A stretch of 48,878 nt of DNA from Acidimicrobiales bacterium. Its GTDB lineage: Bacteria; Actinomycetota; Acidimicrobiia; Acidimicrobiales; Ilumatobacteraceae. The stretch spans positions 1-48,878 of the forward strand of contig JBIOZN010000056.1 of the NCBI GenBank assembly GCA_044871175.1. Reading direction: 5' to 3'. The position numbers and the translations under genes are program-made. Below, piece after piece: positions 25,066 to 46,608 of the stretch (its first letter is position 1; every line of letters starts with the position of its first letter). The notes beneath the pieces are model-generated. The model was given only the letters and a program-made list of their open reading frames with translations. It ran no database searches and was not told where the DNA came from.

Positions 25066-25095
25066 ACTCTAGCGTAAAGTAGCGCCCGGGCGCAA
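25066..25095 (-). promoter_or_regulatory. conserved sigma70-type promoter, copy A (TTGCGC-N18-TAGAGT)
   Basis: Minus strand: GTTGCGCCCGGGCGCTACTTTACGCTAGAGT. One of six near-identical copies. Confidence 0.65.
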
Positions 25096-25100
25096 CCCCG

Positions 25101-25304
25101 CTATTGTGGCTCTTTCGGAACCGGTTCGGGTGCCACCCGTCCCAGCAGCGTCCCCGGGGTCCCCTCGTCCACCAGTTCCAGCAGCCCGGCGGTGAACACC
25201 GACTCGGGCACCTCGTGATCCTCGGGCAGGTCCACCTCATCACCGGGACGCATGCCGTAGATGTTGGCCCGGGCCCGCACCCTCACCGCGTCCCCACCGC
25301 CCAC
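25101..25304 (-). CDS. hypothetical small protein
   Basis: ORF-track ORF. An alternative GTG 25286 forms a GTGA overlap with micro-ORF 25283..25351. Confidence 0.55.
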   Translation of the reverse strand: MGGGDAVRVRARANIYGMRPGDEVDLPEDHEVPESVFTAGLLELVDEGTPGTLLGRVAPEPVPKEPQ

Positions 25305-25351
25305 GCCACCAGCATCGTCACCGTCCAGATGAACACGACCCCGGTCACCAT
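25283..25351 (-). CDS. 22-aa hydrophobic micro-ORF (MVTGVVFIWTVTMLVAWAVGTR)
   Basis: ATG 25351. The stop overlaps a GTG of the next gene (GTGA). Below the ORF-track cutoff. Speculative. Confidence 0.25.
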   Translation of the reverse strand: MVTGVVFIWTVTMLVAWAVGTR

Positions 25352-25368
25352 CGTCAGGTGGGGCCGGT

Positions 25369-25848
25369 TCAGAGCGCCACGCGCAAGGTGAACGTGTAGC
25401 CGGCGCAGCCGCCCCCAGGATTCATGCACTCCATGTCGGGCGGGTCGAGCGCCTGGCAGCCGCTCACTTCGGTCGTCAGCCAGCCCTGCGACATCGCTGT
25501 CAGCAGGGCGCAGTAGATGGTCCATGCGTGACTCGTTATCCGCACGAAGTCCTCATCGAGACGGACTGCCGACGGAAACACCCCTTGGGCGTCAGGAGTG
25601 GCAACACACTCGCTCAACGTCAGCACATAGGTGGCGTTGGTGGCGTAGAAGCACTGGGCGAAGCCGAGCTGGCTGACCGAGGTGGGGGAGACGGGCGTCA
25701 GCGTGGCAACGCTGGGGACGTGGACGGCGAGCAGGTCGCAGCAGTCCAGCGGCGGCGCGCACAACGACCGGTACACCTGCATCGCCGCCGCCACCTCGGG
25801 GGGCAGGGCGGCCGCGGCGATGGAGAGGATGTCGGCCGCCACCGACAT
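25369..25848 (-). CDS. hypothetical head-tail connector-region protein
   Basis: Real part of ORF 25369..26085. Start is ATG 25848 or GTG 25866. Cys-containing, ordinary composition. Confidence 0.6.
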   Translation of the reverse strand: MSVAADILSIAAAALPPEVAAAMQVYRSLCAPPLDCCDLLAVHVPSVATLTPVSPTSVSQLGFAQCFYATNATYVLTLSECVATPDAQGVFPSAVRLDEDFVRITSHAWTIYCALLTAMSQGWLTTEVSGCQALDPPDMECMNPGGGCAGYTFTLRVAL

Positions 25849-25871
25849 GACGTCGGCCCGGACCACGGTCG

Positions 25872-26651
25872 TTACGGGGCCGGGCACGGTGCTGGCAGCC
25901 GCAACGGCCAGGCCACGTCGAGCGAAGTGAGCGTGGCCCGCCGCCGCAGCCCCTTCGGGTTGACCGCCCGCAGGAACCGGTCCACGGCGGGGATGCCCAT
26001 CACGTCGGTCAGCACCGACTGGTCGGCCATGTTGACGGTGACCCCCTGGCGGACCAGGTTGACCGTGCGGGGCGACACGGCGCACTCACCACCAGCGCAG
26101 CCCGCCGCCAGGTCGCAGGCCAAGGCGGCCGCCGCCATCACACCACTCGCCGGTGGCAGCCGGCCCCACGTGTACTCGGCGACCATGCGCGGCTCGGCGT
26201 CATCCAGCCCGGTGCAGGCCGGCCAGTGGGGCGTCACGTCCGGGTCGCCGCCCGCCGGCCGCACCCGGGTCAGCCAGCGGCCCGCGTCCAGCCGGTAGGT
26301 GGCCGGGTCGATCGGGGCGCCGTCAAGGGTGACAGCGGTGACCTCGACAACGTCCTCCCGGCTCAGCCGGTACCGGTCCATGCGACAGCAGCACGACTCC
26401 CGGTTGCATTCGCAGTCACGGCACAGGGCGTCCCGGCCAGTGCACAGGCCCGGGTAGCGCCGGCCCGACAGCCAGTACAGCAGCTCGGTGGCCGCCGTTC
26501 GCAGGGTGAGGGTGGCCGCCTCGAAGTCCTCCGGGGCGGCCGACTCGTCCCGGAGCCGCTCGATGGCGGGGCACGGGCAGACCAGCAGGTCGTCAGCCGT
26601 CAACCACAGTTGGCAGGGCCCGGGCGGGCACACGTCGGCCACGGGCGCCAT
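25872..26651 (-). CDS. head-to-tail adaptor (candidate)
   Basis: LYWLSGRRYPGLC…CRDCECNRESCCC…VEVTAVTLDGAPIDPATYRLD…WP matches the LSGRRFxG…C…V.vDG..l….Y.ld pattern of actinophage adaptors. Confidence 0.55.
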   Translation of the reverse strand: MAPVADVCPPGPCQLWLTADDLLVCPCPAIERLRDESAAPEDFEAATLTLRTAATELLYWLSGRRYPGLCTGRDALCRDCECNRESCCCRMDRYRLSREDVVEVTAVTLDGAPIDPATYRLDAGRWLTRVRPAGGDPDVTPHWPACTGLDDAEPRMVAEYTWGRLPPASGVMAAAALACDLAAGCAGGECAVSPRTVNLVRQGVTVNMADQSVLTDVMGIPAVDRFLRAVNPKGLRRRATLTSLDVAWPLRLPAPCPAP

Positions 26652-26662
26652 CTTGGCCTGTG

Positions 26663-27568
26663 TCAGGTGGCCCGGCCGGCTTCCCAGGAGTCGGCGTCCC
26701 AGTGCGCCTCACCGCCGGAGCCGGCGGTGCCGGTCTGCACGTACTGGCCGGTCGTCCAGGCGGTCGCCGGGCTGGCCGTCACCGACGACGACTGCAAGGC
26801 AGCCAGGCTGGCGGGCGGGGTGGCGCCGGACGGCGTCCACGTGCCCGGCGTGCCAGCGGTGGCGCCGGTGGCGGCGGCGGTCTCAGGCAGGTAGCCGCAC
26901 GTCGCCGGGGGCGGGCCGCCCGGGTCGAGCACCACGACGCCCACCTCTTCGGGATTCCACACGGCCGGGTCCCACGGCCAGTCGCCGTACGGGCCGCCGT
27001 CGGTCAGGTCGGCCAGGGCCGGGTTGGGTTCGGCGTAGCCCTCCACCGGGAGTGTGGTGATGTCGTTGTTGAGGGTGAGCGCGCCCGGCCGCAGGTAGGC
27101 GCGGCCCAGCACCGCCCGCCACCAGCGCCGACTGGACGCCCCACCGCACGCCGATCCCGTCGGGTCCACCGTCCGCACCCACATGTCCATGAGCACGCCC
27201 TCCGAGCAGGGCGCCTCCTTGCCGGGGGTGGCGAAACCGATGGCGTTGCCGTCGGCGTCGAGCTTGATGTTGTAGCCGAACACCAGGTCGTACAGGCCCT
27301 CGATGTCGTGCTTGCCGCACAGGGTCATGGCGATGTCCCAGCGGTCGGTGCCCGGCTTGACGCAGCCCTGCACCTTCAGACACTCGTTGTCGCAGGAGTC
27401 GGTGACCACCTTGGGTTCGACGTCGGTGAACGCCGGGGTCAGCTCGGCGTCGACGAAGCCCCAGTAGACGCTGGCGCCCACCGGCCCGCCCGTAGGCAGG
27501 CAGTTCTGGAGGCGGGTGAACCGCACGGCGCACAGGCCCTGCATGCCATAGCACTCGATCTGGGGCAT
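26663..27568 (-). CDS. major virion structural protein (major tail or capsid-associated; assignment uncertain)
   Basis: ATG 27568 after GAGGAGtcaaccc. The C-terminal TPGTWTPSGATPPASLAALQ…TAWTTGQYVQTG…AHWD..SWEAG is a domain I recall on actinophage major tail/capsid subunits. Confidence 0.6.
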   Translation of the reverse strand: MPQIECYGMQGLCAVRFTRLQNCLPTGGPVGASVYWGFVDAELTPAFTDVEPKVVTDSCDNECLKVQGCVKPGTDRWDIAMTLCGKHDIEGLYDLVFGYNIKLDADGNAIGFATPGKEAPCSEGVLMDMWVRTVDPTGSACGGASSRRWWRAVLGRAYLRPGALTLNNDITTLPVEGYAEPNPALADLTDGGPYGDWPWDPAVWNPEEVGVVVLDPGGPPPATCGYLPETAAATGATAGTPGTWTPSGATPPASLAALQSSSVTASPATAWTTGQYVQTGTAGSGGEAHWDADSWEAGRAT

Positions 27569-27584
27569 GGGTTGACTCCTCGGG

Positions 27585-30220: not shown

Positions 30221-30305
30221 GGGAACCTCCGGGTGGGAAAGCACGAACACCAAGTGCCGGCCAACCCGGGCGACTAGGCAGACCCGGACCGCGACGTCAG
30301 GGCGC

Positions 30306-30334
30306 ATGGAAGCACGTTCGCCGGGCGCCCGCAA
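30306..30334 (-). promoter_or_regulatory. weak promoter-like element upstream of the capsid operon (TTGCGG-N17-TTCCAT)
   Basis: The -35 and flanking GCGCCCGG resemble the conserved promoters, but the -10 is poor. Lies in the 142-bp divergent intergenic region. Confidence 0.25.
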
Positions 30335-30362
30335 CGACCAAGGGTGTCTAGCGTGGGTGGGC

Positions 30363-30698
30363 ATGCCGCCCCGTCAGGCCACCGTCGATGTGCAACAAGC
30401 CGTTGACCTGTTGCGGACCGGGCAGCTCGCCTTCGCTGGGGAGGCGTTGCGGATGGCGCGGTGGTGCAACGAACGGCTCCACAACCCGTCGACCCAAGAC
30501 CCCGAACTGCTGCACGCCGAACGGATGGCGGTGGCGGCGGTGATGCGGGCCGCCGCCCAGGCCAACGCGTCGGTGGGGCGGCCGATGGCGAACGTGCTGC
30601 CACAGGTGAACGTGACCCTGGCCGCCGGCCCGGCCGCCCCTGCCATTGATGTCATGAGCCGGCTCTTGGAGGACATGGGCCTGCCGCCCGCGTCATGA
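30363..30698 (+). CDS. hypothetical protein, small terminase subunit by position only
   Basis: Trimmed from ORF 29949..30698 to ATG 30363. ATGA overlap with the terminase large subunit. Confidence 0.55.
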   Translation: MPPRQATVDVQQAVDLLRTGQLAFAGEALRMARWCNERLHNPSTQDPELLHAERMAVAAVMRAAAQANASVGRPMANVLPQVNVTLAAGPAAPAIDVMSRLLEDMGLPPAS

Positions 30699-32278
30699 CC
30701 GTGACCCGGTCGTGGGCGTTGCGGGCCGTGCAGGCGTTGGTGGCGGCCTGGCCGACGCTGCCCCCCGACTCGCACAGTGCCGCCCGCCGGTTGCACCGCG
30801 AACTGGTCGCGCTGGAGGCGCAGCAGGCCGGCTCCGCCGAAGCCGTCGGGCTCGTGCTGCAGTCACTGGTCGGCTCCGAGGAAGGGGCGGGCCCGGTGCT
30901 GGCGGGGGTGCGCCGCTCGTGGGCGTGGCGGGGCCGTGACGCCCAGCAGCCGCCGCCCGGGCCGTGGCTGTACTTCCTGGCGCTCGGGGGCCGGGGGGCC
31001 GGCAAATCGCAGACCGTCACCGAGTTTGCGTTGGCGATGGGCGGGGTGGCCGGGGCGGCCCTGCCCAACCTGCCGTTCATGCCCGGCTCGATCGGGGTGA
31101 TCCTGTCGCCCACCAACAACCTGGCTCGCAAGGTGACCGTGGAGGGGCCGTCGGGCCTGTTGCGGACCGCCGAGGGTTACGGGGCGGCGGCCCGTTGGAA
31201 GCCGACCGCGCTGGAGGTGGACCTGGGCAACGGCACCACCGTCCACGTCATGTCGGCCGAGAACCCTGACCGGTTGCGGGGCATCCAGTCGCACTGGACG
31301 GTCGTGGACGAGTTGGGGGCGTTCACCGACTTCGACGCCTGGAACCAGGTGCGTCTCCTCACCCGGCTCCCCATCCCCGGTGACCGCAACCGGATCATCG
31401 CCTCCACCACGCCCCGCCCGGTGGACCCGATCATCGAGTTGGACCGGCGGGCCCGGGAAGGCGACCCGGCGGTGGCGCTCAGCCGCATGACCACCTATGA
31501 GAACGCCGCCAACCTGGGCGAGGCGATCCTGACCGAACTGCGGGCCACCTACGAAGGCACGACGCTCGGCGCCCAGGAGCTTGAAGGGGTGCTGCTCGAC
31601 CCCGAGTCGCAGGGCGCCCTCCTCCAACCCCAGCACTTCCACTGGGTGGAATGGGATGAGGTGCCCCCGTTGGGCCGGGTCACCGTCTCGGTGGACCCGA
31701 CCATCGGCGGCGGCCAAGCCCACCACGACGAGTGCGGAGTGGCAGTGGTCGGGCGGTCCGGCAGCGACGGGTACGTGCTGGCCGACCTCAGCTTGCACGC
31801 CACCACCGAAGGCTGGTGCCGGGTGGTGGTCGACGCTGCCGTCAAGTACGACGCCGACGAGATCGTCTACGAAGGCAACGCCGGTGGCGACCTGATCCCG
31901 GCGATGCTGGCCCGCATCGCCATGGACACCGGGGAGACGCTGCCCCGGGTGCGGGCGGAACGGTCACGGGCCTCCAAGGTGGACCGGGCCCGGCCGGTGG
32001 CGCTCGCCTACGAACAGGGGCGCATCTTTCACGTTGGTGAACTGGCCGCCCTGGAACACGAGTGGGTGACGTGGATTCCGGGGGCCCGCGGCTCGGCCGG
32101 CCGCAGCCCCAACCGGATCGACGCGGTGGCGCAAGGGTTCATGGCGCTCGGGTTGGCGCGCATGCCGGGCCGGCCCGCCCGGGTGCACCGGGTGGGGGCG
32201 CCCGTCGGCCCGCCGCCAGCCGTCCCGCCGGTGGTGCCACGGCGGCGGTCGGCCGCCATCGTCATCCCCGGCCGCTAG
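30695..32278 (+). CDS. terL: terminase large subunit
   Basis: Walker A GGRGAGKS, Walker B-like WTVVDELGAF, C-terminal nuclease-like region. 527 aa. Confidence 0.85.
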   Translation: MTVTRSWALRAVQALVAAWPTLPPDSHSAARRLHRELVALEAQQAGSAEAVGLVLQSLVGSEEGAGPVLAGVRRSWAWRGRDAQQPPPGPWLYFLALGGRGAGKSQTVTEFALAMGGVAGAALPNLPFMPGSIGVILSPTNNLARKVTVEGPSGLLRTAEGYGAAARWKPTALEVDLGNGTTVHVMSAENPDRLRGIQSHWTVVDELGAFTDFDAWNQVRLLTRLPIPGDRNRIIASTTPRPVDPIIELDRRAREGDPAVALSRMTTYENAANLGEAILTELRATYEGTTLGAQELEGVLLDPESQGALLQPQHFHWVEWDEVPPLGRVTVSVDPTIGGGQAHHDECGVAVVGRSGSDGYVLADLSLHATTEGWCRVVVDAAVKYDADEIVYEGNAGGDLIPAMLARIAMDTGETLPRVRAERSRASKVDRARPVALAYEQGRIFHVGELAALEHEWVTWIPGARGSAGRSPNRIDAVAQGFMALGLARMPGRPARVHRVGAPVGPPPAVPPVVPRRRSAAIVIPGR

Positions 32279-32695
32279 TCAGACCGCCCACGAACGTTCC
32301 TGCCGGAAGCCCTCGGCGGCCTCGGCGGCCAGCGCGATCGCCGGGCCCGTGGGAATCAGGATGCGGGTCAGACCGGGCGGGGCCTGGGGCCCGACGCGCC
32401 AGGCCCCACCCAGCCCTCGCCACAATGCCACCTCGGCCGGCCAGTCCTCCACGGGGTCCGCCAACCCGCGCCAGACCGCCCCCACGAACACGGCCCGCAA
32501 CGGGATGGTGTCGGCGGCGGCGGCGATCACCGCCAGCCGGGCGACGTCATGCGTGCTCCACCGGCGCCGCGAGCCCGACCCGACGCCAGGCTGGGTGGGG
32601 GCGATGACCCCGAGGGCGATCCAATGGTCGATCACCCGGAAGGTGAGCCCGGTGGCGCGCGCCACCGCCGGGGTGGAGTGCATCACCACGGGCAT
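32279..32695 (-). CDS. MerR-like HTH DNA-binding protein
   Basis: Trimmed to ATG 32695 (ATGA overlap with the WhiB stop). ATGLTFRVIDHWIALGVIAP…RRRWSTHDVARL is MerR-type. Confidence 0.6.
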   Translation of the reverse strand: MPVVMHSTPAVARATGLTFRVIDHWIALGVIAPTQPGVGSGSRRRWSTHDVARLAVIAAAADTIPLRAVFVGAVWRGLADPVEDWPAEVALWRGLGGAWRVGPQAPPGLTRILIPTGPAIALAAEAAEGFRQERSWAV

Positions 32696-32925
32696 CACGC
32701 CACCTGCCGCCGCCGCTGCAACTGGCGCCGCTGGCGTTCGTTGCGGCCGCCCCACACGCCGAACTTCTCCCGCAGCCCGTAGGCGAGGCACTCAGCCGAG
32801 ACGCGACAGCCGGCGCAGATCTCCTGCGCCGGCCGAGGGTTGTCACCCCGGGAAGGGAAGAACAGTTCTGGGCTCATACCCCGGCAGGCAGCGTGCGCCT
32901 GCCAGGGCGGTCGTTCAGGGATCAG
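32695..32925 (-). CDS. whiB: WhiB-family Fe-S transcription factor, probably initiating at non-canonical CTG
   Basis: - The track ORF starts at ATG 32877, but the in-frame upstream sequence encodes W-QAHAAC-RG, the first WhiB Cys.
- No ATG/GTG/TTG occurs in that frame after the preceding stop.
- CTG 32925 has GGAGG 7 nt upstream and forms a CTGA overlap with the GGCT stop. Confidence 0.6.
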   Translation of the reverse strand: MIPERPPWQAHAACRGMSPELFFPSRGDNPRPAQEICAGCRVSAECLAYGLREKFGVWGGRNERQRRQLQRRRQVA

Positions 32926-33326
32926 GCGATTGCCTCCATCATCCAGTCGTTGTTGGGCACGGCCGGCAGGTTGGCGTACCGCTCCGGGTGGGCCGGCGTG
33001 TACACCCAGGCCAGGTGGTCATCCCCCCAAGCATCGGTGACGCGGGCGGCGACGCGACAGTAGAAGTGGGGCACGCCTTCCAACCGGTCCATGAGCGGCA
33101 GGCCGACCAGTTCGGCGGCCGCGTCGTCCCAGCGGATCAGGTCGACCACGGTCAGGGCGCCCGGCTCGGGAAGGGCGAACGGGAAGGCGCGGCCGTGGCC
33201 GACGAGACGGAAGCCGTGGAGAACGCCGGGCTCGGCCCGGGCCAGCCCGGACCACAGGCGGGCGTTGCCTCCGCCCTCCCGCAGGGTGCCGTACACGGCG
33301 ACGGGCCGGATCGTGTCGCAGCTCAT
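32922..33326 (-). CDS. gamma-glutamylcyclotransferase (GGCT/AIG2-like) family protein
   Basis: VAVYGTLREGGGNARLW… N-terminal YGTLxxG motif. 134 aa, typical size. Confidence 0.65.
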   Translation of the reverse strand: MSCDTIRPVAVYGTLREGGGNARLWSGLARAEPGVLHGFRLVGHGRAFPFALPEPGALTVVDLIRWDDAAAELVGLPLMDRLEGVPHFYCRVAARVTDAWGDDHLAWVYTPAHPERYANLPAVPNNDWMMEAIA

Positions 33327-33526
33327 CGGGCCGTCACCCCGTAGGACTCGGCGATCTCAGCGACCGGGGTGGACGCGGCGAAGCGTTGGGGTGGCTGGGC
33401 GATGCCCCGCTCCACCGTCCACGCCCACAGACAGCCGCGCGCCCGGCGCACGGTGAGCGTGCGCCGGGGACTGGTGACGATGGTGACGTAGCCGTCCTCG
33501 TCCAGGGCGGCCTGGTACTCACTCAT
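33323..33526 (-). CDS. hypothetical protein
   Basis: ORF-track ORF. ATGA overlaps at both ends. Confidence 0.65.
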   Translation of the reverse strand: MSEYQAALDEDGYVTIVTSPRRTLTVRRARGCLWAWTVERGIAQPPQRFAASTPVAEIAESYGVTAR

Positions 33527-33720
33527 CGGGCTGTCCGGCGGCGGGTGAGGTGGGCGGTGAGGGGGTCGGCCAGCACGGCGTCGCGCTGGGCGTCGGTCAG
33601 CCGGTCGTGGCGGATGATGACGGAGCCGCAGCGGGTGATGACGAGGTGCCGGCCGGACTGGCGGTCGGTGCCGGTGTGGAGCACGGCCACCGGGGGCGTC
33701 GGGGTAGGGGTGGGGTTCAC
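33523..33720 (-). CDS. hypothetical protein, apparently leaderless
   Basis: GTG 33720 lies 8 nt downstream of the promoter B -10. CCCCTACCC sits in codons 4-6. Confidence 0.6.
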   Translation of the reverse strand: MNPTPTPTPPVAVLHTGTDRQSGRHLVITRCGSVIIRHDRLTDAQRDAVLADPLTAHLTRRRTAR

Positions 33721-33728
33721 GACTAGCC

Positions 33729-33758
33729 AGTCTAGTACCCCGTAGCGCCCAGACGCAA
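33729..33758 (-). promoter_or_regulatory. conserved sigma70-type promoter, copy B (TTGCGT-N18-TAGACT)
   Basis: Minus strand: GTTGCGTCTGGGCGCTACGGGGTACTAGACTGGCTAGTC-GTG. Confidence 0.65.
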
Positions 33759-33765
33759 CCAGTGG

Positions 33766-35186: not shown

Positions 35187-35244
35187 GGGTGTGTGTCTCC
35201 TGGTGGGTAGGGGTTGATCTAGGAAGCCTAGCGCAGCGGGGGGC

Positions 35245-35970: not shown

Positions 35971-36004
35971 GGGTGCTCTTTCGGGTAGGGGTGAGGCGTT
36001 AGTC

Positions 36005-36033
36005 AGTCTAGCGGGCGTAGCGCCCCGCCGCAA
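36005..36033 (-). promoter_or_regulatory. conserved sigma70-type promoter, copy C (TTGCGG-N17-TAGACT)
   Basis: Minus strand: GTTGCGGCGGGGCGCTACGCCCGCTAGACTGACTAA. Its -35 overlaps the hairpin at 36021-36048. Confidence 0.65.
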
Positions 36034-36048
36034 CGTGGCGGCGGGGCG
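36021..36048 (-). terminator. 11-bp GC hairpin after the amidoligase gene, overlapping the promoter C -35
   Basis: CGCCCCGCCGC (36021-36031) pairs with GCGGCGGGGCG (36038-36048). The loop is 6 nt. Confidence 0.45.
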
Positions 36049-36053
36049 GAAGC

Positions 36054-37109: not shown

Positions 37110-37141
37110 CGAAGCGCTCCTGGGTAGGGGGGGCACTAGTC

Positions 37142-37170
37142 ATACTAGTTGACGTAGCGCCCGGGCGCAA
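37142..37170 (-). promoter_or_regulatory. conserved sigma70-type promoter, copy D (TTGCGC-N17-TAGTAT)
   Basis: Minus strand: GTTGCGCCCGGGCGCTACGTCAACTAGTATGACTAGTG. Also shares about 25 bp upstream of the -35 with copy A (…GAAAGAGCCAC…). Confidence 0.65.
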
Positions 37171-37219
37171 CCCCACCCATGTGGCTCTTTCGGGAAAGAC
37201 TCGGGAACGGCCGAACGGC

Positions 37220-38287: not shown

Positions 38288-38435
38288 GGCGCTCCGCCTC
38301 GACCTTCCGTTGCAACTCCTCGCCCCACGCGATCAGGTCGATGATGTCCTGGTTGCGGTAGACGGCCTCCCCGCCGAAGGCGGCACCCAGCGACTGTGCC
38401 CGTCGCTTCAGCTGATCCCGCTGTTCAGGCGTCAC
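38280..38435 (-). CDS. hypothetical small protein
   Basis: Trimmed to GTG 38435 (GTGA overlap). VTPEQRDQLKRRAQSLGAAFGG…. Confidence 0.5.
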   Translation of the reverse strand: MTPEQRDQLKRRAQSLGAAFGGEAVYRNQDIIDLIAWGEELQRKVEAERHD

Positions 38436-38551
38436 GGCCGCACCTCGCGGCGCTCGCACCACCAGCACACTTCATCCCGGCCCCGCTCCTCGAACGAGCC
38501 CGTGCGCCAGATCGCCCCGCAGCGCGGGCACCGGACCGGGTGCTCGTTCAC
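38432..38551 (-). CDS. 39-aa zinc-ribbon micro-protein
   Basis: GTG 38551 in a GTGA overlap with the upstream stop. CPRCG…CWWC. Confidence 0.45.
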   Translation of the reverse strand: MNEHPVRCPRCGAIWRTGSFEERGRDEVCWWCERREVRP

Positions 38552-39432
38552 GGCCACGCCACGATCCTGCCTGAGTCCCGGTACCAACGCAGCCTGGACT
38601 TGTCGATGCCGGCGGCGATGCCCACCCACGGGTCGGGGATGGTGTTCTCCCACGCCCACTGGAGGATCGCCCGGTCTTGGGCGGGGGCGGCCTGGATCTC
38701 CGCTCTGAGGGCGGCGAGGTGGCGGCCCGGGTAGTAGCGGCCGTCCCGCATCACGTTGAAGTCGCAGATGACCGTCTCAAAGTCCACCCAGGCCAGGGGC
38801 ACGCCTGCGGCCGCCAGGTGGTCGCGGCACTCGGCGGCGATCGCGTCGAGCCGGGCCGGGGACGGGTTGGGTTCGTCCCAGATGCGTTCCAAGGCGCGCC
38901 GGGGCCCGGACGACTCCCACAAGCAGGCGTCGGGCGCGCTCACCGGCACCCCGTTGACCTTCATGGCGAACTCGGCCCACTCGAAGGCAGTCTGCCGTCC
39001 CACGCCCCACACCGTCCGCAGATGCACCAGGAGCTGCCCCCAGTCGGCCTCCGGGTGGTCGCCGGCCAGACAGGACCGCAGCCAGGCGTCCGGGTCGGGC
39101 AGGGCCCGGCGGGCGTAGTCGTTGAGATGGACGACGACCTTGCCGCCCCGCAGGTTGCGGCGCTCCTGGGTGCAGGGGAAGCGGGCGATGTCATCCCGGT
39201 CGAATGCCTCCAACCATGCGCCCAGCGACGGCCACAACCGGAACGCGGCCCAGGCCGACCCGAAGTCGTCGAAGGCGTTGTACAGCTTCACCAGCCAGCC
39301 GGCCTCGGCGTCGGTGACCACGTCGAGCCCGCGCAGGGTGCGGAGCAGCGCCGCCCACGGCTCCAGGTCACCGGAGTCGGCCTCGATGCGGGCGAAGGTG
39401 ACGAGGTCGGCGAGGGTGGCCCGGTCGATCAT
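38548..39432 (-). CDS. HhH/DNA-glycosylase-fold protein, candidate alpha-glutamyl/putrescinyl-thymine pyrophosphorylase-like (aGPT-Pplase-like)
   Basis: Trimmed to ATG 39432 (ATGA overlap with the kinase stop). VWGVGRQTAFEWAEF is a GxGxxTA helix-hairpin-helix-like motif. The family call is from context and memory, not verified. Confidence 0.4.
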   Translation of the reverse strand: MIDRATLADLVTFARIEADSGDLEPWAALLRTLRGLDVVTDAEAGWLVKLYNAFDDFGSAWAAFRLWPSLGAWLEAFDRDDIARFPCTQERRNLRGGKVVVHLNDYARRALPDPDAWLRSCLAGDHPEADWGQLLVHLRTVWGVGRQTAFEWAEFAMKVNGVPVSAPDACLWESSGPRRALERIWDEPNPSPARLDAIAAECRDHLAAAGVPLAWVDFETVICDFNVMRDGRYYPGRHLAALRAEIQAAPAQDRAILQWAWENTIPDPWVGIAAGIDKSRLRWYRDSGRIVAWP

Positions 39433-39965
39433 CGCAGCACGATGTCCACGAGGGAGCGGGCCAGCGTGCACACCGGGCCGTCGCCGGGCACGTCCAGTCG
39501 GGGCCCGTCCCAGGCGGCGACCAGGTTGTTGACCTTGGTGCGCCGGCCCGCCAGCCAGGCCGGGTTCGGGGCCCAGCCGCGGCTGGCCCGCCGCTCGGCG
39601 GCGACAGCCGGGTCGAGCGTGACCTGGACCAGGAGCACGTCGTAGCCGACGGCCCGGGCGGCGTCGAAGAACTTCAGGTTGGCGAGCCGGTCACCTTCAC
39701 CGAGGACGAACCGGCCGGGGGCGTCAGCCAGCCAGGCGCGCGCCCGGGGCCCCACGCTCATGCTCAACGCGTCGGTGCCAGCGAACCGGGCCCGGCGCAC
39801 CCCCAGGTAGCAGCCGTCGACCACGCCGGTCACCCGGTCCACCAGTTCCACGTGAGCGAAGGGTTTGGCCCGGGGATGTTCATGCCAGTCACCCACCGCC
39901 AGCGCCGCGCCCAGCAGAGTTGTCTTGCCCGCGCCCGGTTCGCCCACCACGTACACCAGCAGCAC
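39429..39965 (-). CDS. small P-loop NTPase/kinase (candidate 5-hmdU DNA kinase-like)
   Basis: Walker A VVGEPGAGKTTLL at the N-terminus. 178 aa. Translationally coupled to the HhH-fold gene. Confidence 0.6.
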   Translation of the reverse strand: MLLVYVVGEPGAGKTTLLGAALAVGDWHEHPRAKPFAHVELVDRVTGVVDGCYLGVRRARFAGTDALSMSVGPRARAWLADAPGRFVLGEGDRLANLKFFDAARAVGYDVLLVQVTLDPAVAAERRASRGWAPNPAWLAGRRTKVNNLVAAWDGPRLDVPGDGPVCTLARSLVDIVLR

Positions 39966-39977
39966 CCATCGAGCGTG

Positions 39978-40214
39978 TCACCCGCAGCGGTGAGGCGTGT
40001 ACAAGGTCTGCCCGTTGTCCCGGCGGGCCTTGGCCTCGTCGGCGTCCAACGCCTCCGCCCACGGGGGCGGGCCCCGATGCACCACCACTCGCCCCGAGCC
40101 CGGGTTGGGGGCGGCGTCCAGGGCCATGATGCGTTCGTCGGGGCCCAACACCCGCCACACGTAGGCGCCGCACCGGGTGCAGCAGTCGCCGGTGGTGCGC
40201 CGACGGAAACTCAC
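39978..40214 (-). CDS. Cys-rich small protein, paralog of 40211..40459
   Basis: GTG 40214 (GTGA overlap). CCTRCGAYVW…ALDAAPN…TLYTPHRCG parallels its neighbour. Confidence 0.55.
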   Translation of the reverse strand: MSFRRRTTGDCCTRCGAYVWRVLGPDERIMALDAAPNPGSGRVVVHRGPPPWAEALDADEAKARRDNGQTLYTPHRCG

Positions 40215-40459
40215 CGCCGCTTCCGCTTCCGCCATTCGCCGGCCTGCGGGCAGGTGACGAAGTGCGACAGGTACAACGGGCCTTCCACCAGGCTCGCCTC
40301 CATCGGCCCCAGCACCCGCGACGTGAGCAGGGCGCCGTCAGCGGTCACCTCCACGTTGCCACCCTCGATCGGTAGCTCGTTGACGGGCAAGGCTTTGCCC
40401 GCCTCGGTCACCGTCCACACGACGGCCGCCTGGCAGGAGCCGCACCGGGCCCCTGTCAC
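40211..40459 (-). CDS. Cys-rich small protein (CxxC…C), paralog of 39978..40214
   Basis: GTG 40459 (GTGA overlap). CGSCQAAVVW…LPVNELPIEGGNVEV…LSHFVTCPQ. Confidence 0.55.
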   Translation of the reverse strand: MTGARCGSCQAAVVWTVTEAGKALPVNELPIEGGNVEVTADGALLTSRVLGPMEASLVEGPLYLSHFVTCPQAGEWRKRKRR

Positions 40460-40554
40460 TCCGGGCCCTCGGCCAGGAGGCGGCCCACGACCAGGCCGAC
40501 CACGACCGACATCACGCACCAGACGGCGATCACGTAGCACGCCGTCGCGATCAC
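40456..40554 (-). CDS. 32-aa transmembrane micro-protein
   Basis: VIATACYVIAVWCVMSVVVGLVVGRLLAEGPE. GTGA overlaps at both ends. Below the ORF-track cutoff. Confidence 0.4.
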   Translation of the reverse strand: MIATACYVIAVWCVMSVVVGLVVGRLLAEGPE

Positions 40555-41411
40555 AGGTGGGCCTCCCGGCGGGAGGCGGCGTTCTCGTCCTGCAAGCGGG
40601 TGGCCTCCCGGGCGGCCCGCAACGGCTCGTCGGCCGGGTCAGGCGCGCATCTCGCCATGCCCGTGCGGGCGTACAACACCACCGTGTACCGGTAGCCGCC
40701 CGACTTGGTCAGCCGGAACGGGGTGACCCCGTGCAGCACCGACTGGCCGTCGAACATGAGCAGGCTGCCGTGGGGGACGGTGAACACGGTGTTGTAGTCG
40801 GCGAGGTGGAGCAGGCCACCCTCGCAGTGGCGTTTGGCGGCCAGCATCACGCTCCACGACCCGACCACGTTGCCGGCGTCACGGTGGTAGGGCAGGCCCG
40901 AGTTGCCGTTGACGATGCCACTGGTGAACGGGGTGCCCGGCAGCCGCCAGGCCGGCGGCACCCCCTTGGCGTCCACCCGGGCGACCGTGTCGGTGTACTG
41001 CTCGGGGGCGGCCACAGCGAAGCTCGCTGTCATCGCCCGGCTCGCCTCCCACAGCACCGCCCCCAGCGTCGGGTATTCGGACTCCAGGGCGCAGCGGCGG
41101 CAGTCGTACCGTTTCCGCAGCGGCACCGGAGGCAGGTAGCCGAACGTGCGGGCCGGGCTGCACAACCCGGACAGGCGGGCCTGGCTGTTGGACGAGAAGG
41201 TGTCCGAGTAGCGGATGTGGCGCAAGTGGTGGGCGACCGCGGTGGCCAGGGCCTCCCGGCCGGTGGCCTGAACGGCGATCAGCTTGCCGGTCGCGGCGTC
41301 CACCAGTCGGGCCGACCCGTCCAGCACCTGGGCGCCGGGCAGGGCGGCCGGGGCGTGGGCCCGGCGGCGGGCCGTCGGGTGCTCACGGCGGTGCGCCGCA
41401 TGGGTCAGCAT
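40551..41411 (-). CDS. 2OG-Fe(II) dioxygenase (TET/JBP-like candidate)
   Basis: HxD (LPYHRDAGN), distal His (SVLHGVTPF) and Arg (GYRYTVVLYAR) at the spacing expected for a DSBH oxygenase. The TET/JBP assignment is inferred from context. Confidence 0.55.
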   Translation of the reverse strand: MLTHAAHRREHPTARRRAHAPAALPGAQVLDGSARLVDAATGKLIAVQATGREALATAVAHHLRHIRYSDTFSSNSQARLSGLCSPARTFGYLPPVPLRKRYDCRRCALESEYPTLGAVLWEASRAMTASFAVAAPEQYTDTVARVDAKGVPPAWRLPGTPFTSGIVNGNSGLPYHRDAGNVVGSWSVMLAAKRHCEGGLLHLADYNTVFTVPHGSLLMFDGQSVLHGVTPFRLTKSGGYRYTVVLYARTGMARCAPDPADEPLRAAREATRLQDENAASRREAHL

Positions 41412-41629
41412 TCCGGCTCCGGTTCGGGCTCAGCGCTGTCGCCGTTGCCGCGCCGCTCGGCCCGGTCAATCACCGCCAACACCCGGCTCAACAGTTCCTC
41501 GGCGCCCACCAGGCCCCGAATGGAGGCGTTGATCTGGTCGCGCTGGGCCCGCAACTGGGCCAGCGACTCCCGCACGTCCAGCAGGCGGGTGGTGGTGTGC
41601 TCCTTCAACTCCTCCCGGGTGTCCATCAC
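41405..41629 (-). CDS. hypothetical coiled-coil protein
   Basis: ORF-track ORF. GTGA overlap with the ParB-like stop. Confidence 0.6.
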   Translation of the reverse strand: MMDTREELKEHTTTRLLDVRESLAQLRAQRDQINASIRGLVGAEELLSRVLAVIDRAERRGNGDSAEPEPEPEC

Positions 41630-42264
41630 GGCTCCGTTTCCACCTGCCGCACCGCTTCGATCACCAGTTGGTAGATGACGCCGGCATTGGTGTCCAGGTC
41701 CAGGGCCCGGCGCAACACGCCCAACGCCTCCACCATGGTGTCGAAGGTGGCCGTCGGGTAGGGCAACACGATCGACCGCAGGTCGGCGGCCTCGTACTCG
41801 TTGGCCCGTTCACCCGGTTCCTGGCCCTGACGGACGGCGCCGTAGCCGCCCTCGGTGAGCGACTGGAGCAGCAGCCCGTACGCCTCGGCGTCGAAGCCGG
41901 TGCCGGCGTAGTCACCGTCAAGCTCGTTGAGCAACGCCATCAGGGCGGCGTCGTCGTAGGCGGCCAGGTCGTTCGACCGGTTGTCGACCAGGAGGATGCG
42001 GCGGGCCTGCTCGTCGTCGACGTCGAGCCGGATCACGTCCACATGGGTCCAGCCGACCGACACGGCCGCCTCCACGGTGCCGTGACCGGCGATGATCCGG
42101 TTGGTGCTGGCCTGCACCAGGATCGGCCGGTACTGGCCGTGGGCCCGCAGCGAGTCGGCGATGACGGCGATGTCGTGGATGCGGGGGTTGCCCGGCCAGG
42201 GCTCCAGGTAGTCGATGGGCACCGACTCGACCTGGCGGGTAGGGGTGTCAGTCACGCTAGCCAC
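41626..42264 (-). CDS. ParB N-terminal-domain (ParB/Srx-fold) protein
   Basis: IDYLEPWPGNPRIHD…IIAGHGTVEAA… ParBc motifs. Start is GTG 42264, or GTG 42255 if leaderless from the TAGGGT element. Confidence 0.7.
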   Translation of the reverse strand: MASVTDTPTRQVESVPIDYLEPWPGNPRIHDIAVIADSLRAHGQYRPILVQASTNRIIAGHGTVEAAVSVGWTHVDVIRLDVDDEQARRILLVDNRSNDLAAYDDAALMALLNELDGDYAGTGFDAEAYGLLLQSLTEGGYGAVRQGQEPGERANEYEAADLRSIVLPYPTATFDTMVEALGVLRRALDLDTNAGVIYQLVIEAVRQVETEP

Positions 42265-42268
42265 CCTA
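42257..42268 (-). promoter_or_regulatory. partial promoter copy: -10-like TAGGGT + GGCTAG directly before the ParB-like start (no -35)
   Basis: Minus TAGGGTGGCTAGCGTGACTGACACCCCTACCC parallels promoter B, TAGACTGGCTAGTCGTGAACCCCACCCCTACCC. Confidence 0.3.
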
Positions 42269-42278
42269 GCCCGGAAGC

Positions 42279-42318
42279 ACAGCGACCCCCGAGCGGCGGG
42301 CCGCTCGGGGGTCGCTGT
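42279..42318 (-). terminator. perfect 18-bp stem / 4-nt loop hairpin
   Basis: ACAGCGACCCCCGAGCGG-CGGG-CCGCTCGGGGGTCGCTGT, between the stop at 42381 and the ParB-like start. No U tract. Confidence 0.55.
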
Positions 42319-42380
42319 CCCCTACCCAGGGGAGCCCCGAGGGGGCGCGCCCCAGGTTACCCGATGACCGCCTAGAGACG

Positions 42381-42736: not shown

Positions 42737-42737
42737 C

Positions 42738-43259: not shown

Positions 43260-43561
43260 GACCTCCGCAGCAGGCCCCGCCGGTGGGCGAGGGCGACATG
43301 GTCATGAACGGCCCGGTGATGGGAGGCGCACAACACGACCACGTTGTCCAGGTCCAGTTCGCCGCCCGGGCGCAACGAGCGTTGCACCCGTTCGTGGGCG
43401 TCGAGCCCGCCGTGGCAGCGGATCTCCGGCCAGACCTTCTCGGCCTCGCAGACGAAGTTGGCGCGCCGCAACGCCTCGTCCACGACGGCGCGCCGTTCCC
43501 GGGCCTGGGCGGCCCGGCGCAGGCTGACCTGCGACAGCCGGGCCCGGCGGCGCAGGGTCAC
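43250..43561 (-). CDS. HNH endonuclease
   Basis: Trimmed to GTG 43561 (GTGA overlap). CEAE…CHGGLDAHERV…DNVVVLCASHHRAVH. Confidence 0.75.
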   Translation of the reverse strand: MTLRRRARLSQVSLRRAAQARERRAVVDEALRRANFVCEAEKVWPEIRCHGGLDAHERVQRSLRPGGELDLDNVVVLCASHHRAVHDHVALAHRRGLLRRSWE

Positions 43562-43830
43562 GGCAGGTTGCGGGTGGAGTAGCTGACCCAGGCGGCCAAC
43601 CGGCGCAGGCTGGTCACGTTGGGCGGCACGGCGTGGCTGACCCAGCGGGACAGGTCGTAGCGGGACAGGTCGGCCTCGGCGGCGACCTGGGCCCACGGGA
43701 CCATGCGCCGGGCGTGCTCGGCTCGGACGGCGGCGAGGATGGTTTCACGGCAGGCGTCCAGGGCGGCCGCCGCCTCGTCCAGTGCGGCGGTCAGGTCGTC
43801 CAAGGGGACGCTGGGCATCACGCGAGGCAT
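43558..43830 (-). CDS. hypothetical protein
   Basis: ATG 43830 after GAAGGAGtccaccgtc. First gene downstream of promoter E. Confidence 0.7.
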   Translation of the reverse strand: MPRVMPSVPLDDLTAALDEAAAALDACRETILAAVRAEHARRMVPWAQVAAEADLSRYDLSRWVSHAVPPNVTSLRRLAAWVSYSTRNLP

Positions 43831-43867
43831 GACGGTGGACTCCTTCGGGTCAGGGGGGTGACTACCC

Positions 43868-43897
43868 AGTCTAGCCGGGCGTAGCGTCGTCGCGCAA
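43868..43897 (-). promoter_or_regulatory. conserved sigma70-type promoter, copy E (TTGCGC-N18-TAGACT), embedded in the 3' end of the upstream gene
   Basis: Minus strand: GTTGCGCGACGACGCTACGCCCGGCTAGACT. The TAG of the -10 is the stop codon of 43871..44332. Confidence 0.6.
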
Positions 43898-44332
43898 CGT
43901 CAGGCGGCCGGCGGAGGTGATGCGGCGCACCACGGCCCGACGGCCCGACCGGTTCACCCGCCGCTCCTCGGTGTCCACGGCCAACCCCTTCAGCACCAAA
44001 GCCCGCAACCGGGCGCTGAGCGACTGGTGCCGGCCGCCCAGCAGGGCCTCAACCTCGTCGCTGGTCAGCCCGTCCTCGTGGGCGGCCAGCACCCGCAGCA
44101 CCACCCGCTCCTGGGCCTGGACGTGGGGCAGCATCGAGTAAGCGGCATCAATGGAGGTGTCGGAGCCGGCCACGTAGCCGGGGGCGTCCGGGTAGTGGAA
44201 GCCAACCTCGGCCCGGCAGCCGGCGCACAGCCCGCCGGTGACGTCGTTGGGGTGGAGGCTGGTGGCACCGCACCGTTTGCACTCGGCCGGGTCATCCCAG
44301 AAGGAGGGTTGCTGCGGCGGGGCAGGGGGCAT
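43871..44332 (-). CDS. zinc-ribbon + winged-helix (MarR-like) DNA-binding protein, apparently leaderless
   Basis: CKRCG…CAGC, then VLRVLAAHEDGLTSDEVEALL…RLRALVLKGLAV. ATG 44332 lies 6 nt after a TAGAGT -10-like element. Confidence 0.7.
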   Translation of the reverse strand: MPPAPPQQPSFWDDPAECKRCGATSLHPNDVTGGLCAGCRAEVGFHYPDAPGYVAGSDTSIDAAYSMLPHVQAQERVVLRVLAAHEDGLTSDEVEALLGGRHQSLSARLRALVLKGLAVDTEERRVNRSGRRAVVRRITSAGRLTLRDDATPG

Positions 44333-44344
44333 CTAGCCACTCTA
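44333..44344 (-). promoter_or_regulatory. partial promoter copy: TAGAGT + GGCTAG immediately before ATG 44332 (no -35)
   Basis: Minus strand: TAGAGTGGCTAG-ATG. The TAG is the stop of 44342..44545. Confidence 0.3.
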
Positions 44345-44545
44345 GGCGTCCGGGCTGTCGCGGTCGCTCGGCCCCGAGTCCCGGGCGTACAGGGCGAGCG
44401 CGGCGCCGAACAGGACGGCTCCGAGGGTCAGCAGCGTGCCGGCCGCCAGCAGCCGCTCTTGACTCTGGTTGAGCAGCGCCACCGCCGCGGCGATGCACAC
44501 CGTGGCCGCCAGCACTAGTGGCCAACGGCCAACCTGCCGCCACAA
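44342..44545 (-). CDS. holin-like two-TM membrane protein (candidate)
   Basis: Downstream of the amidase. WPLVLAATVCIAAAVALL and LLTLGAVLFGAALALY segments. Start uncertain (TTG 44545 chosen; the track start 44626 would overlap the amidase by 74 nt). Confidence 0.5.
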   Translation of the reverse strand: MWRQVGRWPLVLAATVCIAAAVALLNQSQERLLAAGTLLTLGAVLFGAALALYARDSGPSDRDSPDA

Positions 44546-45676: not shown

Positions 45677-45678
45677 GC

Positions 45679-45876
45679 TCACCTCACGATCACTTTCAGT
45701 AGGGCCAGCACGCGCGATGGCGGCCACTGGCGGAGAAGCTGCACGCCCTGGTCGGTCCCCGCCCACACCAGCGGCTCCACGTCGGACTCGCCGAACTCGG
45801 CGCTCTGCAACGCGATGATGAACTCGCCGAGGTCGGACAGCGCTTCCGGTTCGATGGGGCGGCGGCGGCGGCGCAC
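45679..45876 (-). CDS. hypothetical protein
   Basis: Real C-terminal part of ORF 45679..45954. GTG 45876 chosen. Start uncertain. Confidence 0.45.
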   Translation of the reverse strand: MRRRRRPIEPEALSDLGEFIIALQSAEFGESDVEPLVWAGTDQGVQLLRQWPPSRVLALLKVIVR

Positions 45877-45938
45877 TACCTGGCCTGCCCGTTCTCGGTC
45901 ACGCCCGCCATCGTCGCACGGCGCGAGGCTGGACGGGT

Positions 45939-46181
45939 ATGAGCACCCAGACACCCGATGATCCCCAGGGCGGCCGCCCCGCCACTCCCCCCGGCCAGCA
46001 GGGCACCCAGCCCGGTAACCGGCCTGACGTTCCCCCCGGCCAGGACCCCAACCGGGTGCCGCCCGGGCAGCAGGAGCAGCCGGCGACCAAGCCGGTCGAG
46101 CCGGAGGAAGAGCCCGAAGCCGAACCGAAGGACGCCGAGACCGAGGCCGACCGGCGGGCCGACCGGGGCCTGGACCGCTAG
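45939..46181 (+). CDS. plus-strand low-complexity Pro/Gln/Glu-rich (PPGQ repeats) small protein
   Basis: ATG 45939, high GC3, followed by a canonical terminator. Convergent with the minus-strand gene 46234..46545. Confidence 0.5.
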   Translation: MSTQTPDDPQGGRPATPPGQQGTQPGNRPDVPPGQDPNRVPPGQQEQPATKPVEPEEEPEAEPKDAETEADRRADRGLDR

Positions 46182-46197
46182 CGGGCCAGGCTCGCCA

Positions 46198-46230
46198 CGA
46201 GGGGCCGCCCGGAAGCGGCCCCTCGTTTGT
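46198..46230 (+). terminator. canonical rho-independent terminator (bidirectional position)
   Basis: 11-bp stem CGAGGGGCCGC/GCGGCCCCTCG, 6-nt loop, then TTTGT. Lies between convergent genes. Confidence 0.7.
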
Positions 46231-46233
46231 CGC

Positions 46234-46545
46234 TCAGAGGTCGTCCACGGGAAGCTCGACGGGGGCGGGCCGGACGACGAGGCGGGCGGCCTCGTTCAGG
46301 GCCGTGTTGAGCCGGGCGGCCTCGGTGACCGTGCCCCACAAGACCACGCCGTGCCGGCCCCGCAGTTCCACCCGGACCGGGGCCAGCCCGGTCATGGGCC
46401 CGCCCCGCACTGCGGCGACGACGATGCGGGCGTTGGGTGGGCCCCAGATGGTGACGGGGGTGTCGGGGCCGCGGCTCAGGCGCAGCAGCGCGCGGGTGGC
46501 GGCGAAATCGGTGAACGGGTCGGAGGGAGTGAGAAACAGGCTCAC
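46234..46545 (-). CDS. hypothetical protein
   Basis: Trimmed from ORF 46234..46881 to GTG 46545. CCCCTACCCccGAAAGGccaccccc upstream. First gene downstream of promoter F. Confidence 0.6.
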   Translation of the reverse strand: MSLFLTPSDPFTDFAATRALLRLSRGPDTPVTIWGPPNARIVVAAVRGGPMTGLAPVRVELRGRHGVVLWGTVTEAARLNTALNEAARLVVRPAPVELPVDDL

Positions 46546-46579
46546 GGGGGTGGCCTTTCGGGGGTAGGGGTACCTACCC

Positions 46580-46608
46580 ACTCTAGCCGGTGTAGCGCCC
46601 CGCCGCAA
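46580..46608 (-). promoter_or_regulatory. conserved sigma70-type promoter, copy F (TTGCGG-N17-TAGAGT)
   Basis: Minus strand: GTTGCGGCGGGGCGCTACACCGGCTAGAGTGGGTAGG. Confidence 0.65.

Follow-up and report, generated by a model that had tools for sequence, protein, structure and literature searches.

How are the co-directional, tightly packed genes of an uncultured actinophage divided into units that can be expressed separately? The question is posed by a stretch of 48,878 bases (the window), which is the entire contig C56 (JBIOZN010000056.1; 71.8% G+C), the largest of a 551-contig, 3.76-Mb metagenome-assembled genome (MAG) placed in the Ilumatobacteraceae, and in which a short cassette, full or partial, precedes at least 11 phage genes. 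A first-pass annotation of the sequence had read six full copies (here A to F) as near-identical minus-strand promoters and had listed five partial ones (here p988, p2933, p35231, p42269 and p44345). The best explanation of our results is that the full copies are strong promoters for the primary sigma factor of the host, σA, and we consider this likely.

The cassette is built of modules. Module i, found at six sites, is GTTGCG-N6-CGCTAC, with both half-sites invariant and the centre variable. A linker of 5–6 unconserved bases separates it from module ii, C-TAG-N-N-T-G-N-c-T-A-G (loose form CTAG..TG..TAG), which is present at all eleven sites; no site deviates at CTAG or T11, and T7, G8, A12 and G13 are each kept in 10 of 11. 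Five sites consist of this 13-nt box only, without a -35, and are as the first-pass annotation described them. All 11 sites are on the minus strand, point the same way as the genes and precede a start codon. A search with the full pattern, GTTGCG-N6-CGCTAC-N5/6-CTAGAsT, returned six matches, on the minus strand only and exactly where the full copies had been annotated.

Is this a discrete family or the upper tail of a continuum of look-alikes? TTGCG-N6-CGCTAC was matched six times at zero mismatches, against 0.86 expected even when one mismatch is allowed. The complete 18-nt imperfect dyad occurs in six perfect copies and in none with one mismatch, and at up to three mismatches its number is that of chance (82 seen, 77 expected); given this gap between perfect copies and chance-level background, the family is discrete. 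The 13-nt box CTAGAsTGrsTAG has nine matches at up to one mismatch, all on the minus strand, versus 0.04 expected, and all six minus-strand instances of TAGA[CG]T are within the motif, the plus strand having none. As many as 18 of the 32 CTAG tetramers of the contig fall within the eleven sites, the density of this tetramer being four times that of the remaining assembly. Neither the dyad nor the strict 13-nt box has a copy in the other 550 contigs, and the full-copy pattern is absent from 400 other genomes of the same family, in which a reversed-pattern control gave scattered matches.

The N6 centre and the linker vary fully from copy to copy beside invariant boxes, which indicates that selection has acted on the boxes and that the copies are not the product of recent duplication. 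This divergence bears on the idea that the repeats are recombination boundaries, left by or serving the shuffling of gene cassettes, with no regulatory role. Copies A and D do share an upstream flank, as had been reported (52 nt in total at 83% identity, family D16, including ~35 nt upstream of the -35), and copy A stands at the head of what looks like a moron inserted into the virion module. Flanking sequence is common to these two copies only, however, the centres and linkers have diverged in every copy while the boxes have not, and strict orientation with a fixed distance to the start codon would be unexpected of scars, so that we regard a purely recombinational origin as highly improbable.

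The assignment of a promoter role to the cassette draws on rules read from the host itself. We derived these from the assembly minus this contig, using ~20,500 candidate start codons of confidently coding open reading frames (ORFs). TANNNT ends 6, 7, 8 and 9 nt before start codons 151, 134, 115 and 74 times, respectively, versus ~15 times at other offsets, and these 474 sites constitute the signature of leaderless genes. Their alignment gives a -10 element of TA(G/C)(C/G)(G/C)T, essentially without -35 information. A subset of host promoters has a TTG-type -35 at 17–18 nt: TTGNNN-Nx-TANNNT peaks at x = 17 (47 cases) and x = 18 (29 cases) versus ~11 at spacings outside 15–19. Mutagenesis in mycobacteria has placed the promoter optimum at TTGCGA-N18±1-TANNNT (Agarwal and Tyagi, 2006; PMC1616969). 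The full copies, TTGCGs-N17/18-TAGAsT, agree with five of the six -35 positions of that optimum and have optimal spacing, three of the spacers being 17 nt and three 18 nt long.

A -35 TTGnnn at this distance is present in the six full copies and absent from the five partial ones, while TANNNT is in register at ten of the eleven boxes (as TAGAGT, TAGACT, TAGTAT, TAGGGT or TAGGCT), the -10 of the full copies being more A/T-rich than typical host hexamers. The hexamers of the partial copies, TAGGGT, TAGGCT and TAGAGT, are used by the host at 38, 23 and 4 of the 474 sites. Since host leaderless promoters lack -35 information, the -10-only copies are also credible as promoters. Thus, the annotated -35/-10 reading gains support from host signals and from the mycobacterial optimum, although two of its details need correction: the spacer lengths are right, yet GCGCTAC is contained in only five of the six spacers (copy E has ACGCTAC), and the -10 is strictly followed by G(A/G)CTAG only in B and D, the others having GACTGG, GACTAA and, twice, GGGTAG.

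The location of the sites is that of promoters. All 11 lie in or border intergenic gaps and face the downstream gene; the -35 of copy E and the box p44345 overlap the last codons of the upstream gene. In E, the -35 and dyad fall within the end of a winged-helix gene, and, as annotated, the TAG stop codons upstream of E and of p44345 supply the first three bases of the -10. Over the contig as a whole, the family is confined to the minus strand. Non-coding DNA accounts for 12% of the contig, yet 21 of the 24 TANNNT on the coding strand touch it (P = 8e-17). It contains 21 TANNNT on the minus and 7 on the plus strand, and AT-richness is not the cause of the intergenic excess, because intergenic DNA has 73.7% G+C. 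The boundaries of transcription units are consistent with promoters, one terminator-like hairpin lying just before p42269, where it marks such a boundary, and another just after the gene headed by copy A (Table 1).

A terminator function of the cassettes finds no counterpart in the sequence, in which they have no U-tracts and an E. coli-type consensus scan called zero terminators. Copy C does overlap the 11-bp hairpin noted earlier (-28 kcal/mol, z = -3.0), its -35 forming the 3' arm, but it is the only copy that folds significantly (the other five have z between -1.4 and +0.7), and a hairpin or terminator reading of module i was rejected. We also rejected a -10 of the σB/σF type (GGGTAT-like, from the GGGTAG in E and F), which would apply to only 2 of 11 sites and is not accompanied by a GTTT-type -35 at the right distance.

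Taken as promoters, the six full copies would be read by host RNA polymerase with σA, and transcription would start ~6–8 nt past the -10, at or just beyond the conserved TAG, leaving a 5' leader of ~25–35 nt at most sites. By host standards, four of the five partial copies would be ordinary -10-only promoters, one of them clearly leaderless. The cassettes would divide the co-directional early region, including genes for DNA hypermodification, into separately driven units, and copy A would drive a moron-like membrane-protein gene inside the virion module. The leaderless case is p44345, at which the ATG stands 6 nt past the -10, as in the leaderless mode of the host; it heads a gene with Zn-ribbon and winged-helix domains, contains the stop codon of the upstream ORF within its box and is the best candidate for a leaderless promoter. 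Outside the family, TATGGT on the minus strand lies 7 nt before ATG 47962 (47962–47975) and 9 nt before ATG 48354 (48354–48369); both are likely leaderless promoters, and the 170-aa winged-helix gene probably starts at 47962, not at 47974.

Table 1. Coordinates of cassette copies, of the associated module iii boxes and genes, and of terminator-like hairpins in the window
Feature	Position	Strand	Details
Full copy F	46574..46609	-	GTTGCGGCGGGGCGCTAC-accgg-CTAGAGTGGGTAG; -35 TTGCGG, spacer 17 nt, -10 TAGAGT
Module iii at F	46562..46570	-	ends 16 nt before GTG 46545
Gene headed by F	GTG 46545	-	103 aa
Partial copy p44345	44333..44345	-	CTAGAGTGGCTAG, then immediately ATG 44332 (6 nt from -10)
Full copy E	43862..43898	-	GTTGCGCGACGACGCTAC-gcccgg-CTAGACTGGGTAG; spacer 18 nt
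Module iii variant at E	43847..43858	-	CCCCCCTGACCC, then GAAGGAG, then ATG 43830
Gene headed by E	ATG 43830	-	90 aa
Terminator-like hairpin	42275..42322	-	~20-bp stem; 84-nt fold -62.5 kcal/mol, z = -5.7; directly upstream of p42269
Partial copy p42269	42257..42269	-	CTAGGGTGGCTAG; directly after very strong terminator-like hairpin
Module iii at p42269	42237..42245	-	ends 14 nt before GTG 42222
Full copy D	37136..37171	-	GTTGCGCCCGGGCGCTAC-gtcaa-CTAGTATGACTAG; spacer 17 nt; heads amidoligase gene, ATG 37109
Module iii at D	37122..37130	-	ends 12 nt before ATG 37109
Full copy C	35999..36034	-	GTTGCGGCGGGGCGCTAC-gcccg-CTAGACTGACTAA; spacer 17 nt
Module iii at C	35983..35991	-	ends 12 nt before ATG 35970
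Gene headed by C	ATG 35970	-	class-II glutamine amidotransferase
Partial copy p35231	35219..35231	-	CTAGGCTTCCTAG, then CCCCTACCC, Shine-Dalgarno sequence, ATG 35186 (376-aa gene)
Module iii at p35231	35205..35213	-	ends 18 nt before ATG 35186
Full copy B	33723..33759	-	GTTGCGTCTGGGCGCTAC-ggggta-CTAGACTGGCTAG; spacer 18 nt
Module iii at B	33702..33710	-	after annotated GTG 33720; downstream GTG may be real start
Operon headed by B		-	65-aa gene, 67-aa gene, GGACT, WhiB, MerR-like gene
Full copy A	25060..25096	-	GTTGCGCCCGGGCGCTAC-tttacg-CTAGAGTGACTGG; spacer 18 nt; inside virion module
Module iii at A	24832..24840	-	226 nt downstream of -10; ends 17 nt before ATG 24814
Downstream of A		-	251-nt leader, 120-aa membrane-protein gene (ATG 24814), terminator-like hairpin
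Terminator-like hairpin	24400..24428	-	12-bp G+C stem, z = -3.9; after membrane-protein gene of copy A
Partial copy p2933	2918..2933	-	CTAGACAGGCTAGGTT; aligned hexamer TAGACA, not TANNNT
Partial copy p988	976..988	-	CTAGGCTGACTAG; directly after stop codon of Rpf-like gene
Module iii at p988	871..879	-	103 nt downstream of box; ends 12 nt before ATG 858

A third linked module was overlooked in the first reading. Module iii is CCCCTACCC followed by a purine-rich Shine-Dalgarno (SD) sequence, and the minus strand has eight exact copies of the 9-mer and the plus strand one, the expectation for an 8-mer being 1.4. Each of the eight on the minus strand follows a module ii box, and seven of them end 12–18 nt before a start codon, just upstream of the SD; of the 28 host copies of CCCCTACCC, none is accompanied by an SD and a start codon in this way. 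Where the leader is of standard length (seven sites), the end of the -10 and the start codon are 32–40 nt apart. Because the distance of 12–18 nt holds even at A and p988, where the box lies far upstream, it is the start codon that module iii tracks, not the promoter; modules i and ii together make up an upstream unit of their own. The 3' end of the 16S rRNA, with which CCCCUACCC might pair, is absent from the assembly.

Module iii complicates two of the three leaderless starts that had been annotated. The start at 44332 stands, its 6-nt gap fitting the host peak. At B and p42269 the gaps of 8 and 7 nt would permit leaderless starts at 33720 and 42255, but this would place CCCCTACCC within the first codons, and at six other sites it is located in the leader. 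For the ParB-like gene headed by p42269, the Pfam domain begins at a second possible start, GTG 42222, which has an SD-like AGGTCGAG. Gene starts were obtained with a simple GC3-based caller and compared with gene calls on Logan contigs of the same phage; the starts at B (GTG 33720, leaderless, or the downstream GTG) and at 42255 are ambiguous. Also near p42269, GGGTAGGGG (42319–42327 in the minus-strand RNA) is exactly complementary to the copy of CCCCTACCC at 42237–42245, which follows after ~73 nt. They lie on either side of the terminator hairpin and p42269, and long-range pairing between them could mask module iii in read-through transcripts.

A box at a fixed distance from the start codon, wherever the -10 box sits, brings to mind the start-associated sequences (SAS) and extended SAS (ESAS) of other phages, and the cassette as a whole could in principle be such an element, acting at the level of RNA or translation (through processing, ribosome recruitment or an RNA-binding protein) on long polycistronic messages transcribed from elsewhere. 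The genes are indeed co-directional and tightly packed, making read-through messages likely, and phages of Clusters K and EF pair a ribosome-binding-site box with an upstream conserved box, centred in EF on GTAGAG. Modules i and ii, however, have no consistent RNA fold; it is their sequence that is conserved, with no covariation, and the -35/-10 geometry with host-matched spacing would be left as an unexplained coincidence. We consider it quite unlikely for the cassette as a whole. For module iii alone it may still hold, and our preferred explanation, σA promoters followed by a separate start-linked box, already allows for this.

The full copies are more conserved than σA recognition would demand. 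Invariant or nearly so are, in addition, G-36, the dyad from -36 to -19 with CGCTAC in the spacer, C-13, G-6 and the TAG at -3 to -1. The dyad keeps a fixed position relative to the -35 and not to the -10, and its span of ~-36 to -19 would be typical of a repressor site. RNA folding being significant in copy C alone, a DNA-binding protein is the simplest explanation of the constraint; the additional positions are likely an overlaid binding site for a phage-encoded regulator, for which the dyad is a plausible operator. Candidate DNA binders encoded by the phage are a WhiB protein (Pfam Whib, 70.8 bits), a MerR-type helix-turn-helix (HTH) protein (32279–32695; 26.6 bits) and winged-helix matches below Pfam thresholds. 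The products of 43558–43830, 43871–44332 and 47462–47962 count among the candidates for the regulator. WhiB-family proteins normally act via region 4 of σA, without binding dyads themselves.

A more radical view is that the 13-nt box, with the dyad at six sites, serves mainly as a phage repressor site of the stoperator kind, through which transcription would be halted or blocked at numerous points, any resemblance to a -10 being incidental or secondary. Eleven co-oriented asymmetric 13-nt copies in short intergenic gaps, two of them overlapping stop codons, would suit this, as would the several candidate DNA binders and the conservation of C1, G8, T11, A12 and G13, which the host -10 profile does not require; p988, after a stop codon and before hairpins, is moreover poorly placed for a promoter. 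Against it stand the TANNNT at ten of eleven boxes, six of them paired with TTG at the host-preferred 17–18 nt, and the regular distance to start codons, which at p44345 is exactly the 6 nt of the host leaderless peak. Pfam and PHROGs scans identified no integrase or recognisable immunity repressor in the contig, the ends of which are open. We judge a primarily repressive function unlikely; the two roles are not mutually exclusive.

Several observations weigh against the σA assignment. TTGCGN is only weakly enriched in the host at 16–18 nt (5, 4 and 3 cases versus ~1.5), TTGCGs agrees with TTGACA at TTG only, and a scan with E. coli-type promoter and terminator consensus patterns called zero sites, although we judge that scan to carry no information on actinobacterial signals at high G+C. 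C-13, G-6 and TAG at -3 to -1 are not favoured in the host profile, and the box could thus be mainly a protein-binding site. At p988, two stable hairpins (z = -2.9) lie between the box and its CCCCTACCC, SD and ATG 858, because of which a promoter role of this copy is doubtful. The host was assigned by binning, and the contig is the composition outlier of the assembly: its tetranucleotide correlation with the remainder, 0.973 versus a median of 0.996, is the lowest of all contigs. Relatives that would allow footprinting were not found: among 5.8 billion proteins, none matches TerL at more than 39% identity. A motif scan of IMG/VR gave two single matches, and of the 120 matching stretches of a metagenome scan, the 80 listed have one match each, none of them with the extended motif. 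Finally, the capsid operon has neither a cassette copy nor a TANNNT upstream, and the cassette family is for this reason not the sole promoter type of the phage; some other kind of promoter, or an activator, must serve the late operon. The divergent region at 30221–30452, between the capsid operon (-) and a small gene plus TerL (+), contains no cassette and no minus-strand TANNNT.

The gene content gives the proposed promoters their setting. By Pfam and PHROGs scans, the contig is that of a siphovirus, with large terminase (TerL, 30695–32278, plus strand, nearly all other phage genes being on the minus strand), major head, major tail, head-tail adaptor, minor tail, portal and tape measure functions. 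The virion genes have an unusual order: capsid, major tail, adaptor, minor tails, fibres, portal, MuF-like and tape measure, with TerL on the opposite strand. No replication genes were found in the contig by the same scans, and no terminal repeat at its open ends, from which the phage genome is probably incomplete. The Rpf-like and WhiB genes point to an actinobacterial host. The MerR-like gene, a neighbour of the terminase genes, may serve in packaging or in an excision-type function. The WhiB gene (32695–32925, minus strand), in the operon of copy B, is absent from the Logan gene calls; its conserved N-terminal Cys segment precedes its only ATG, and its start codon is ambiguous.

Within the virion module, copy A, its membrane-protein gene and the hairpin at 24400..24428 make up what we interpret as a moron-like unit between head and tail genes. 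The leader of this unit (24815–25065, minus strand) folds to -111 kcal/mol, which is no better than shuffled sequence (z = +0.35), and the possibility that it is highly structured was rejected. At p2933, an overlapping TAGGTT sits 8 nt before ATG 2909 of a 223-aa gene. That gene (2238–2909), directly downstream of the partial copy, borders ~700 bp of strict 5-nt periodicity (~1461–2236, family D1), which separates it from an Rpf-like transglycosylase domain.

The early region encodes a DNA-hypermodification set (32922–42264, minus strand): ParB_N-like, Tet/JBP dioxygenase, P-loop nucleotide kinase 3, amino-acid:DNA transferase (ADDT), Asp/Arg-hydroxylase-like, amidoligase_2, class-II glutamine amidotransferase (GATase) and GGACT. 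Four cassette copies (p42269, D, C and p35231) split it into units that would be driven separately, p42269 heading the block from the ParB-like gene through Tet/JBP, kinase and DNA transferase. The conserved informative positions of the cassette are nearly all T or A (TTG, CTAC, CTAG..T, TAG), in a genome of 72% G+C. The cassettes sit within, and would drive, these genes for thymidine or base hypermodification. Were thymines of the boxes to carry modifications, whether in packaged DNA or from some point after replication, templates with and without them would be recognised differently, and the cassette could be a three-part control unit whose strength is set by the DNA chemistry of the phage, a built-in early-to-late switch. 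The modification-sensitive reader would then be σA, a complex of phage WhiB with σA or a dyad-binding protein, and the capsid operon without TANNNT would fit a separate late mode. We rate such a switch as very unlikely.

Similarity searches placed the phage apart from those known. A 5 kb megablast against isolated phages gave no match, tblastn found at most 37% identity for TerL and 33% for the capsid, and homologues of the amidoligase reach at most 43%. A search in IMG/VR with a capsid-neighbour protein returned nothing. Three other contigs with an identical protein represent the same phage (99.99% identity), and L132 (P0005) was rejected as a relative, being an unrelated temperate element. 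The linked pattern of modules ii and iii had 9 viral and 84 genome matches, most of them in a conserved rRNA-like segment of Bacteroidia. Two IMG/VR contigs of 60% G+C, L133 (4518–4557) and L138 (1939–1978), each have one CTAG-rich look-alike on the minus strand, CTAGCTAGACTAGAATGACTAG-N8-CCCCCCTACCC; in the fetched DNA these form no recurring family, and they have no Rfam match. Rfam and tRNA scans of the window found nothing.

Overall, the repeated cassette appears to be a tidy but fairly ordinary phage arrangement for driving genes, in which the promoter family is well supported and an overlaid regulator site likely; activity itself we infer from sequence. It offers a usable transcription map of an orphan, uncultured actinophage with an unusual set of DNA-hypermodification genes, indicating the amidoligase gene, the GATase gene, the block from ParB through Tet/JBP and the WhiB operon as separately driven units. 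The leaderless -10 signal allows host promoter rules to be read from a fragmented MAG without RNA data, which may be of use for promoters of other phages, and for actinobacteria of high G+C the full copies offer candidate promoters that would be both strong and compact.

Known systems resemble the cassette to different degrees. Promoters of the MerR type have over-long spacers of 19–20 nt that contain the dyad. The cassette likewise has a dyad over its -35 and spacer, and the phage encodes a MerR-type HTH protein, but spacers of 17–18 nt, the host optimum, do not fit the MerR mechanism. Stoperators of Cluster A mycobacteriophages are 13–14-bp asymmetric repressor sites (PMC9283540, PMC6550527). 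As with these, many co-oriented asymmetric 13-nt copies occupy short gaps between genes, with overlap of stop codons in some cases and of a promoter in one class. Unlike stoperators, the phage box itself resembles a -10 element, there are only 11 copies, of which just A, p2933 and p988 are in the long late operon, and a repressor of the L5 gp71 type or an integrase is not recognisable in the contig, which may be incomplete.

The closest functional match would be the actinobacterial σA promoter, with which the cassette shares the -35 at five of six positions, the spacer of 17–18 nt, a -10 of TANNNT and the existence of -10-only and leaderless variants. It differs in the extra G-36, the CGCTAC of the spacer, C-13, G-6 and the TAG at -3 to -1, and in its use of TAGAGT, which the host has at only 4 of its 474 sites.

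In architecture, the closest match is the SAS and ESAS of Cluster K mycobacteriophages (Pope et al., 2011; PMC3203893) and of Cluster EF Microbacterium phages, the latter with an upstream conserved element centred on GTAGAG (Jacobs-Sera et al., 2020; PMC7302621); the function of both is unknown. Here, too, about ten short, asymmetric, co-oriented repeats stand just upstream of start codons and are absent from the host in that context (eight exact minus-strand copies of CCCCTACCC and one variant). A subset is linked to an upstream inverted-repeat element, GTTGCG-N6-CGCTAC accompanying six of nine module iii sites, and the GTAGAG of Cluster EF resembles the CTAGAG of our cassette. The sequences themselves are unrelated (CCCCTACCC here, GGGATAGGAGCCC or GGGAAAGGACCCC in those phages), and CCCCTACCC lies upstream of the SD, 12–18 nt from the start, whereas SAS contain the SD and are 3–7 nt from the start. 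We found no protein or nucleotide similarity between this phage and those of Clusters K and EF, and, by its unrelated sequence and the position of CCCCTACCC outside the SD, the cassette is not a member of the SAS/ESAS family. Since its upstream box, unlike theirs, has a clear -35/-10 geometry, the comparison suggests that ESAS-type elements elsewhere may also be promoter/operator units, the start-associated box being a separate, translation-linked signal.

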